Assembly: GCA_046290465.1 (NCBI GenBank)
Contig: JBKAGP010000001.1
Location: 6,272,001 to 6,336,000, forward strand
DNA from: Planctomycetota bacterium
GTDB lineage: Bacteria; Planctomycetota; UBA1135; UBA2386
Direction: 5' to 3'
Length of the DNA stretch: 64,000 nucleotides
A program made the position numbers and the translations under genes. Shown here piece by piece: positions 38,147-44,661 of this stretch. Each line of letters starts with the position of its first letter. Position 1 is the stretch's first letter. The notes beneath the pieces are model-generated. The model saw nothing but the letters and a program-made list of their open reading frames with translations, did not search any database and was not told the origin of the DNA.

Positions 38147-38325
38147 CCGGGCATTCTCGACCGCTCGGCACGTCCAGGAAAGAGAAGAACGGCGATCGCG
38201 TCGGGCCTGTCTTGACCGTCTGTCTGGGCCTCCGTATCGTCCTCGCCCCTCGACCGGGGGTTGTTCCGCGGTCGACGCCATCCAACCGTGTCCGAACGGC
38301 TGTCGAACCCAGGCAGCCCAGCAAC

Positions 38326-39384: not shown

Positions 39385-40332
39385 GTGCTCCAGACCCGAC
39401 TCCACAGCCTCGAACTCGACAACCCGGTGCTCAGCGCGTCGGGCACCTTCGGGTCCGGCTGGGAGGGGCGGCAGTTCTCCGACCTCGGCATGGTCGGCGG
39501 GCTGGTCAGCAAGACGGTGACGCTGGCGCCGCGGCCCGGCAACCCGCCGCCGCGCATCCAGGAGACGCCGTCGGGCATGCTGAACGCGATCGGCCTCGAG
39601 AACAAAGGGGCCGACCACTTCCTCGCCGAGACGCTGCCGCGCATGCACGAACTGGCGGCCGGCGGCCGCCGCGACGGCCGCCACGGCCCGCGCGTGATCG
39701 TCAACATCGGCGGCTCCGACGACGAACTGCAGCAGCTGGCGCAGCGCTTCTGCGAGGCCGGCGTCGACGCGCTCGAGGTCAACCTGTCGTGTCCCAACGT
39801 CGCGCACGGCACGCGCGCCTCGACCGACCCGGAGCTGACCGAGCGCACGGTCGCCGCGGTCAAGCGGGTCGCGACCGTGCCGGTGTTCGCCAAGCTGACG
39901 CCGAACATCGCCGACGTCGTGCCGATCGCGACCGCGGCCAAGGCCGGCGGCGCCGACGGCGTCACGCTGATCAACACGCTGGTCGGCATGGCGATGGACT
40001 GGCGGAAGCGCCGGCCGGTGCTCGGCAACGTCACCGGCGGCCTGTCGGGGCCGGCGGTCAAGCCGGTCGCGATGCGCATCGTCTACCAGGTCGGCAAGGC
40101 GCTGCCGGACCTGCCGATCCTCGCGGTCGGTGGCGCCCACTCGGCGCAGTGCGTGCTCGAGTTCCTGTGTGCGGGTGCCTCGGCGGTGCAGTTCGGCACC
40201 GCGATGTTCTCGGACCCGACGCTGATGGTGCGCGTCGCCGACGAGCTCGAGGAGCTGCTGGCCGCCGCCGGCACCACGGTCGCAGACCTGCGCGGTGCGG
40301 CGCACCGCGAGGTCGCGGAGGTGACGCGATGA
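39385..40332 (+). CDS. pyrD: Dihydroorotate dehydrogenase, family 1 catalytic subunit
   Basis: ASGTFG, GMLNAIGLEN, NLSCPN, KLTPN, INT, GGLSGPAVKP. Confidence 0.93.
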   Translation: MLQTRLHSLELDNPVLSASGTFGSGWEGRQFSDLGMVGGLVSKTVTLAPRPGNPPPRIQETPSGMLNAIGLENKGADHFLAETLPRMHELAAGGRRDGRHGPRVIVNIGGSDDELQQLAQRFCEAGVDALEVNLSCPNVAHGTRASTDPELTERTVAAVKRVATVPVFAKLTPNIADVVPIATAAKAGGADGVTLINTLVGMAMDWRKRRPVLGNVTGGLSGPAVKPVAMRIVYQVGKALPDLPILAVGGAHSAQCVLEFLCAGASAVQFGTAMFSDPTLMVRVADELEELLAAAGTTVADLRGAAHREVAEVTR

Positions 40333-41168
40333 AGCTCACCTCGCTGACCCGGGAGATGGTCGAGCGCGCGGTCTCGATCTATCAGGACCTCGCCTACGGA
40401 TCGGTCGCGCCGAGGCGCCGCATCGCAACCGGCGCCGACGGCGGCAAGGGGCCGCTCGGCATGTTCCACAAGGAGCAGGTCGAGTGCGTGCCGGGCCACG
40501 CGTGCCAGCGCTTCAGCATGCGGCTCGGCAACCGCAACTACCCGTTCATGAAGCTGCTCCTGCAGGAGCACCTGATCGCCGGCGAGTTCTTCTTCGCGGT
40601 CGACACCCACGACCAGATGGAGATCGGGCCGGAGTTTCCCGACTACGAGCAGTGGATGGCGGTGCGCAAGTTCAACTGCGAACTGAAGCGACGCATCGAG
40701 GACAGCTTCGAGCAGGCCGGCCTGGACACGGCGGCGGTCGTGCGCGGCCTGATCGTCGACGAGTGCCGCGACGACGGCAAGCCGTGCCGCGGTCTGGTGC
40801 TGATCGTCGACGACGAGGAGGACCTCGCCGCCGCGGTCGAGGCGCTGATCCAGCGGGCCGGCTTCCGGACCTGCAAGGTGCACGACGGCCGTTCGGCGCT
40901 GGTCGCCACCCGCGAACTGGCGCCGGACCTCGTGCTGCTCGACTACGAACTGCCCGAGCTCGACGGCCTGCAGGTGATCGACGAGCTGCGTCGCGACGCC
41001 GCGACGCGCGACGTGCCGGTGCTGCTCAACAGCGCCGCGCGCATGACGATGGCCGACATCCAGCGCGCCGACGGCTTCCTCAGCAAGCCGTTCCCGGAGA
41101 GCCTGCTCAACGCGATGATCGACCGCGTGCTCGACAAGCACGCGGCGGGCCGCGGGAGGCGCGCGTGA
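40329..41168 (+). CDS. Response regulator with uncharacterised N-terminal domain and C-terminal REC
   Basis: IVDDE, DLVLLD, LDG, KPF; ATGA overlap with pyrD. Confidence 0.88.
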   Translation: MKLTSLTREMVERAVSIYQDLAYGSVAPRRRIATGADGGKGPLGMFHKEQVECVPGHACQRFSMRLGNRNYPFMKLLLQEHLIAGEFFFAVDTHDQMEIGPEFPDYEQWMAVRKFNCELKRRIEDSFEQAGLDTAAVVRGLIVDECRDDGKPCRGLVLIVDDEEDLAAAVEALIQRAGFRTCKVHDGRSALVATRELAPDLVLLDYELPELDGLQVIDELRRDAATRDVPVLLNSAARMTMADIQRADGFLSKPFPESLLNAMIDRVLDKHAAGRGRRA

Positions 41169-41482
41169 GCACCGACGAGAGCAACGCGGCGGCGCCGCCG
41201 CGCAGCGTGCGCGCCACCGGCTTCGTGTCGGCGGTGCTGCTGGTGGTGCTGTTGGCGACGACCGGCCTGCCGGTCGACGCGCAGCATCTGGGTGACGAAC
41301 AACAGGTCGCCTGCTGCGTGGTGCAGCGCACCCACAGCGCCTTCCGGGCGTGCGAACCCGAGGACCTCGCCGGCGCGGACACCGCGACCATCGAGGTCGC
41401 CCCGCCCAGGGTCGCGCCGCGCACCGCGCGGGTCGACAGCTGGGGGCTGCCGCCGCCGCGCGCACCGACGAACCGACGCTGA
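41165..41482 (+). CDS. secA upstream ORF, candidate translation-arrest (SecM-like) peptide
   Basis: GTGA overlap; hydrophobic FVSAVLLVVLLATTG; C-terminus SWGLPPPRAPTNRR. Confidence 0.65.
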   Translation: MSTDESNAAAPPRSVRATGFVSAVLLVVLLATTGLPVDAQHLGDEQQVACCVVQRTHSAFRACEPEDLAGADTATIEVAPPRVAPRTARVDSWGLPPPRAPTNRR

Positions 41483-41498
41483 TCGCGTCCATCCGTTC

Positions 41499-41534
41499 GT
41501 CCATTCCACGTTGTCTATTCCACGTTGTCCAATC
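41499..41534. repeat. Tandem repeat, 14-bp unit GTCYATTCCACGTT x2.5
   Basis: Read directly in the secA leader. Confidence 0.7.
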
Positions 41535-41628
41535 GCGGCGCGTGGTGCCGGTGCGCGCCCCGACGGCGCTTTCCGGCTACCGGTCCCAGACCGGCGCGCC
41601 GCCAGATCCAGAACACCATCCGTCCGTC

Positions 41629-44661
<3,033 letters not shown>

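Follow-up and report, generated by a model that had tools for sequence, protein, structure and literature searches.

The question raised by this locus is whether the short open reading frame upstream of secA (hereafter the uORF) encodes a peptide that arrests its own ribosome and so monitors secretion and, if it does, at which residues the arrest would occur. In the window, i.e., the whole 64,000-nt stretch of DNA analyzed here, the uORF reads from GTG (41165) to TGA (41482) on the + strand, encodes 105 amino acids and ends in SWGLPPPRAPTNRR; a preliminary description of the locus had reported a frame of this length and C-terminus before secA, and it is present as described. A hexamer gene caller trained on the genome placed the uORF independently at identical coordinates with a score of +30, the other frames over it scored -158 and -116, and its codon use is gene-like with a GC3 of 0.92. 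The uORF is a real gene, beyond chance. It had no Pfam match, and the pattern GLPP.RAP occurred once among the 4772 called proteins of the genome. Three RNA runs (X2, X3, and X4) contained only short pieces, seemingly from other organisms, none of which spanned the motif or the gap to secA, and are uninformative either way.

The uORF is part of a run of genes on the same strand (Table 1), preceded by those for a DksA/TraR-type zinc finger (weak match), signal peptidase II, dihydroorotate dehydrogenase and a response regulator, and followed by secA, a Kdo transferase gene and a YchJ-like gene. The genome (G000) held one match over the PF07517 cut-off, namely this secA. The response regulator precedes secA across most of the order, and its stop overlaps the uORF start by 4 nt in-frame in 37/38 loci with a response-regulator gene detected. 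The receiver domain of this protein is C-terminal (residues 157-264), and its N-terminal part showed no significant Pfam match. The 16S rRNA of the genome ends in a canonical anti-Shine-Dalgarno sequence. Between 38000 and 42000, the sole sigma-70-like site was located at 38212-38240 by a consensus scan, which leaves other promoter types possible. In SecA itself, the wing-scaffold domain is joined to the SEC-C motif at the C-terminus by a long linker rich in Pro and Gln (approximately 44130-44600 of the window).

Table 1. Features of the uORF-secA locus in window coordinates.
Feature	Position	Strand	Basis
Response-regulator-type gene; its stop overlaps the uORF start (GTGA)	40329..41168	+	PF00072, E 1.6e-19
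Shine-Dalgarno-like GGGAGG, 5 nt 5' of the uORF start	41154..41159	+	sequence
uORF, candidate arrest peptide of the uA_RQH_UBA2386 group	41165..41482	+	gene call; orthologue 58% identical
Predicted signal peptide, residues 1-39; hydrophobic core 19-35 (41219-41269)	41165..41281	+	hydropathy and orthologue
P-R-x-x-P-R element, 13-18 residues before the RAP Arg; would sit in the exit tunnel	41405..41422	+	
G-L-P-P-P directly 5' of RAP; only G, L and the first P well kept	41444..41458	+	
R-A-P-T, putative arrest site (P site, Pro101 at 41465-41467; A site, Thr102)	41459..41470	+	
Gap, 146 nt, not alignable across the family, C-rich over G	41483..41628	+	
14-nt tandem duplication, strain-specific	41499..41512 / 41513..41526	+	13/14 identical
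SD-less, G-poor secA leader ending YYGTC directly before ATG	41604..41628	+	
secA	41629..44661	+	Pfam SecA domains; sole copy found in genome

Conservation among relatives was the first check proposed for the C-terminal motif. Forty relatives were searched with the first 300 residues of SecA and 37 matched. A frame ending in RAP, defined by RAP within 15 codons of the stop, preceded secA in 22/22 same-family and 2/2 sister-family genomes with a SecA match (G008 with a contig showing only the last 16 codons), so that the motif was retained in all 24/24. A scan of the collection at a SecA identity of at least 67% added 18 further distinct loci, 17 of them with the uORF, the one miss having 119 nt of upstream sequence. 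Residues were counted by column over 41 loci including the window (29 close and 12 distant, after removal of 13 duplicates); G017 and two finds of a profile search bring the total to 44, these last three standing outside the per-column counts. All counts given here overstate the evidence, as kin are not independent. The profile search covered 150 genomes of the phylum besides G000 and gave matches in 14 at E ≤ 0.01: the two same-family matches were true orthologues before secA with a RAP frame (2/2), and the other 12 best matches were weak, had no motif and did not lie near secA within the fetched loci.

Outside the clade, RAP near the stop was found in 3/48 loci, none with Pro at -3. In 13 relatives from seven other families with a SecA match the uORF was not seen before secA: in 10 a response regulator was located 31-256 nt 5' of secA, two had an apparent dehydrogenase gene there, and one contig was too short. 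In a SecA tree from a quick search, built on 63 rows, a branch with an SH-aLRT of 95 separated the 42 uORF loci included from all other rows. The simplest reading of this distribution is a single gain of the uORF within the order, at a point where the two flanking genes already stood side by side, and in the loci examined the uORF is always positioned before secA.

The preliminary description had also claimed an N-terminal hydrophobic segment followed by a spacer of about 60 residues. Both were recovered: the hydrophobic stretch covers residues 19-35, the best 13-residue hydropathy window reaches 2.86, and 67 residues separate the end of this window from the Arg of RAP. The extent of the predicted signal peptide was derived from a SignalP 6.0 call (residues 1-33) on an orthologue in the supplement of PMC10987492, shifted via an ungapped alignment. 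The spacer measures 61-73 residues in 36/39 complete loci, i.e., its length is kept and its sequence is free. Variability at first, second and third codon positions is 0.44, 0.55, and 0.49 in the spacer (flat) and 0.18, 0.11, and 0.30 in the motif, where the third position is the highest. The uORF might instead encode a small exported protein, or be a relic, the conserved Pro/Arg-rich tail then having nothing to do with a regulatory stall; in favor of this, no Pfam family matched more than 1/39 uORF members and a few cysteines are kept within the genus in the alignment of the peptides. However, what would be its mature region is the least conserved part, with only the length retained; conservation peaks in the last 20 residues and stops at RAP-x, and the gene was never found away from its place before secA in the loci examined, which makes this explanation unlikely.

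With an arrest peptide as the preferred reading, the next point concerns the residues at which it would act. Since loci were selected on RAP, its presence in 41/41 of them is circular and the genome and locus denominators given above are the fair measure; the selection left the residue after RAP free. This residue is T in 22 loci, D in five, C in three, S and G in two each and A in one, and a stop codon in six; the three later loci have D, T and G, and Pro directly after RAP occurs in 0/44. The arrest peptide ApcA is reported to stall if the A site is occupied by P, C, N, T, S, G, D or A, and to be impaired by the other residues listed (PMC7897499). All 35/35 sense codons after RAP fall within this tolerated set, the remaining six loci having the stop codon, whereas residues of the set follow RAP at 301/697 RAPx sites in this proteome. 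For six independent draws the probability that all six residues seen belong to the set would be about 0.006, a rough value as kin share history. The restricted A-site residue is the best indirect evidence for an ApcA-like stall at Arg-Ala-Pro. Because RQH peptides arrest when the third residue of the motif occupies the P site (PMC10987492), Pro101 is the predicted P-site and Thr102 the predicted A-site residue.

Upstream of RAP, Gly at -5 is kept in 32/41 loci, Leu at -4 in 34/41, Pro at -3 in 39/41, Pro at -2 in 30/41 and Pro at -1 in 26/41, and in the PRxxPR element Pro, Arg, Pro and Arg are kept in 25/39, 29/39, 27/40, and 33/40, respectively. RAPG fails in the ApdP and SecM contexts (PMC12992588), and therefore arrest with an A-site residue other than proline requires support from residues further upstream, for which the structures of ApdA and ApdP also suggest a role (PMC10951233). 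The kept GLP and PRxxPR residues are the candidates for this function.

The preliminary description had included polyproline in the core motif, and a stall of the uA_LPPP type, with the second Pro of LPPP in the P site, or an EF-P-sensitive pause, RAP being secondary, has to be weighed. LPPP does occupy residues 95-98 of 105 and hence the last 15 residues of the window uORF, the Leu and first Pro before RAP are well kept, other Planctomycetota have uA_LPPP peptides that stall at LPP-P upstream of secA, and the genome has three EF-P-family genes. The latter are located at G000:C1:4457540-4458088, 2780307-2780867, and 4766775-4767302, two of them over the TIGR00038 cut-off. Across the loci, however, PPP before RAP is found in 18/41 and LPPP in 16/41, with LPAP, LPRA, LAQP or RPSA instead and RAP retained, while Pro at -3 is kept in 39/41. 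Moreover, the restricted residue sits after RAP, six loci end exactly at RAP-stop, and Fujiwara et al. (2024) filed an orthologue under RQH and not under uA_LPPP. Polyproline could therefore not be upheld as part of the core, and a polyproline stall appears quite improbable; conservation points to a stall at Arg-Ala-Pro instead.

How a stall at Arg-Ala-Pro might be passed on to secA depends on the gap, which, as the preliminary description had it, separates the uORF from the secA ATG by 146 nt and provides no clear Shine-Dalgarno (SD) sequence. It showed no Rfam match at E up to 1, no sigma-70-like promoter and no intrinsic terminator on the + strand. A frameshift or fusion into secA was rejected, the uORF-to-secA distance being spread over all three frames (16, 10, and 15 loci). 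The repeat and the complementary arms are present at the positions described, but a role as a switch is not supported. One copy of the 14-nt repeat is deleted in 3/3 near-identical contigs covering the site (X8, X9, and X11; the X10 contig has no coverage there), which disqualifies it as a conserved element. The 8-nt arms (41535-41542 and 41595-41602) are one of 14 inverted pairs of at least 8 nt in 301 nt and are at chance level, and the fold of 41440-41660 was no better than shuffles (z -0.59). Gap folding with z below -2 was seen in 8/29 close loci vs. 17/60 background gaps and was hence not better than in the background.

No SD-like word precedes secA in any of the 29 close loci, window included, the G fraction of the last 25 nt is at most 0.20 in 29/29, and YYGTC stands before the ATG in 23/29, as compared to 36/3230 ATG starts in the genome. 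As these loci form one clade, the leader is, by its distribution, one conserved element and not 23 events. Among the 12 distant loci, eight have an SD-like word before secA and none has YYGTC. The lack of SD is not odd in itself, because an SD-like word precedes only 23% of the ATG starts called in the genome. C exceeds G in the gap in 29/29 close loci, with a median skew of 0.17 vs. 0.05 in the background; the excess is modest (79th percentile for the genome; 22/28 close loci above the background median), is in part contributed by the secA leader and gives way to an excess of G in the 12 distant loci (median skew -0.09).

A stalled ribosome that melts an mRNA structure hiding the secA start would keep the same stall and differ in the last step only. 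SecM and uDF_RQH_Enterobacterales work by hairpin melting, and the distant loci lend this output some credit: besides the SD-like words in 8/12, blocking the stall site opens the secA start by more than 1 kcal/mol in 5/12, and own-pair duplexes beat cross pairs (p 0.011) in 1/24 tests. In the window, however, the modeled effect of a blocked stall site on access to the secA start is 0.5 kcal/mol, and with the stall site blocked two of the 29 close loci open and five close by more than 1 kcal/mol; when the fold was extended to the entire uORF, 10/27 open and five close. The motif region of the close loci showed no own-pair advantage (p 0.52-0.87) and no conserved pairing register, although equilibrium folding has little power as a test on RNA with 70% GC. 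A stem-loop hiding the SD of the downstream gene was not found, as SD is absent in 29/29 close loci and in silico folding is inconsistent. The modeling gives a weak hairpin signal confined to the distant, SD-led loci, and for the locus as a whole hairpin melting is possible yet doubtful. Three related candidates were rejected: stall-dependent opening of the secA start (seven loci open and six close by more than 1 kcal/mol over all 41), own-pair vs. cross-pair duplexes (p<0.05 in 4/24 tests and 3/28 windows, the strongest without a shared register), and pairing of the stall codons with the YYGTC leader (all five pairs in only 6/29 loci, no compensation).

Taken together, we consider it likely that the uORF peptide stalls its own ribosome at Arg-Ala-Pro and in this way raises SecA synthesis when export is slow. 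We propose that ribosomes finishing the response regulator would restart at the overlapping GTG of the uORF and come to a halt once Pro101 occupies the P site and Thr102 the A site, in the manner of ApcA at RAP-G. An active Sec machinery would engage the exposed signal and pull the chain free from the stall, whereas during an export lag the stalled ribosome would stay and more SecA would be made. In the least certain step, the link from stall to secA, the parked ribosome may shield the C-rich gap from Rho termination. Given a stall, relief from Rho would be slightly ahead of a SecM-type hairpin, with any other route somewhat behind both. We lean to Rho because C exceeds G in the gap of all 29 close loci, the genome has a rho gene (E 7e-132, below the curated cut-off) and CruR, a RAPP uORF, provides a precedent by acting through Rho across a 162-bp gap (PMC9426467); this lean is only slight because the C excess is modest. 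Two Rho-like genes were seen in total, L113 (G000:C1:1269060-1270166) with the E value given and L114 (6241555-6242565) with E 7e-62, both below the curated cut-off. The literature search found no paper on a Rho-dependent monitoring-substrate arrest peptide of secA. Regarding history, a speculative and less likely scenario is that a monitor entered a housekeeping operon once, at an internal position, with translational coupling, that it stalls at RAP with a small residue or a stop next, and that after SD loss the hairpin gave way to transcript-level control such as Rho termination or to a conserved element in the YYGTC leader, which the leader of a second RAP-uORF operon in this lineage resembles. 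Of the secretion monitor as originally described, the membrane-targeted uORF, conserved before the genome's sole secA, its matching layout and its single origin within the order have stood, while its newness, the polyproline core and the switch in the gap have not.

If this reading is true, it would confirm a group that was listed but left untested in a published survey. The natural variation after RAP within one family (Thr, Asp, Cys, Ser, Gly, Ala or stop) would allow arrest during elongation and at termination to be contrasted at a single position; LudP has been described to arrest at both (bioRxiv 10.64898/2026.10.26.761930). The output could be new for a secretion monitor, because the textbook hairpin cannot apply as drawn where secA has no SD sequence. 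The surprise is limited, since the class of arrest peptides is well known; what is added here is a larger family, a putative single origin within an operon, an A-site pattern with six RAP-stop forms and the finding that the usual hairpin is not evident.

Fujiwara et al. (2024) screened secA uORFs, and rows 849, 850, and 866 of their supplementary file 9 are named uA_RQH_UBA2386 (PMC10987492). The protein in row 849 is identical in every letter to the uORF of locus L003, from a same-genus genome, and shows 58% identity to the window uORF over 90 ungapped residues, and the row 866 protein matches the uORF of L021 over the printed part. The place before secA and the RAP register are shared, with the P site at residue 96 in row 849 and at 101 in the window. 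Membership of the order UBA2386 is indirect, in that same-genus and same-order uORFs match two of the three listed members. By alignment, the uORF is a new member of this published RAPP-like group, and the candidate as such is not new, contrary to the preliminary claim. It is in accordance with the description of RQH peptides as a small unannotated same-strand uORF before secA with an N-terminal hydrophobic segment, a conserved RAPT and a spacer of more than 30 residues, and RAPT and RAP-stop are among the query motifs of that study (PMC10987492). Eleven RQH members are named as tested in the sections considered, uA_RQH_UBA2386 not among them, and no experiment on this group was found in a literature search that covered text sections and supplementary file 9 of PMC10987492. 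Compared with the three members given there, 44 loci were found here, and the position inside an operon, the single origin, the A-site pattern and the SD-less leader are added to the sections of that paper covered.

The uORF also resembles uA_LPPP, which likewise occurs in Planctomycetota before secA with a signal and a spacer, and its copy in the window has LPPP near the C-terminus. However, uA_LPPP stalls at LPP-P, the three members compared have no RAP after LPPP (PMC10987492), and its orders are Phycisphaerales, UBA1161 and WQYP01, whereas the window orthologues are filed under UBA2386. Membership was rejected: LPPP lies within the last 15 residues here but is kept in only 16/41 loci, and the orders differ.

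CruR, a DUF2946 uORF, shares the RAP-type motif, the long gap and possibly the Rho output, and senses copper via a CxxC 45 residues before RAPP (PMC9426467). The uORF has no conserved CxxC and PF11162 was not among the matches of 39 members, so it was not assigned to CruR/DUF2946. A second RAP uORF was noted elsewhere in the genome (L115:6568-6993, minus strand; G000:C1:452567-452992): it encodes 141 amino acids with a hydrophobic N-terminus, is His/Cys-rich, has a CxxC 45 residues before RAPS, i.e., with CruR spacing, and lies 88 nt 5' of genes for an ECF sigma factor and an ArsP_1 permease. Its homologues L140-L144 end in RAPP and the frame downstream reads as the same sigma factor; no DUF2946 match was found at the locus. 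By analogy, it is likely a metal-sensing CruR-like arrest peptide controlling the sigma factor. In both operons with a RAP uORF, the ATG of the downstream gene is immediately preceded by a pyrimidine-rich leader containing TCCG or CCGTC (window 41604-41628; L139-L142 and L144), a pattern matched by 30/4772 starts including both genes and defined after the fact.

With E. coli SecM, the uORF has in common the signal sequence, a spacer (near the median of 71 of the short SecM class), an Arg-Ala-type arrest motif and secA downstream. It differs in that its start overlaps the upstream gene, that secA has no SD and no hairpin was found before it, and that the arrest sequence FxxxxWIxxxxGIRAGP is absent, for which reason membership in SecM was rejected. 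ApcA likewise combines RAP with a small A-site residue other than proline, Pro being reported absent there also in ApcA homologues, but it is found before yidC2 in Actinobacteria and has mostly Gly after RAP, where Thr or stop is found here (PMC7897499). As far as these comparisons go, the uORF peptide probably resembles ApcA in its action on the ribosome and SecM in its purpose.
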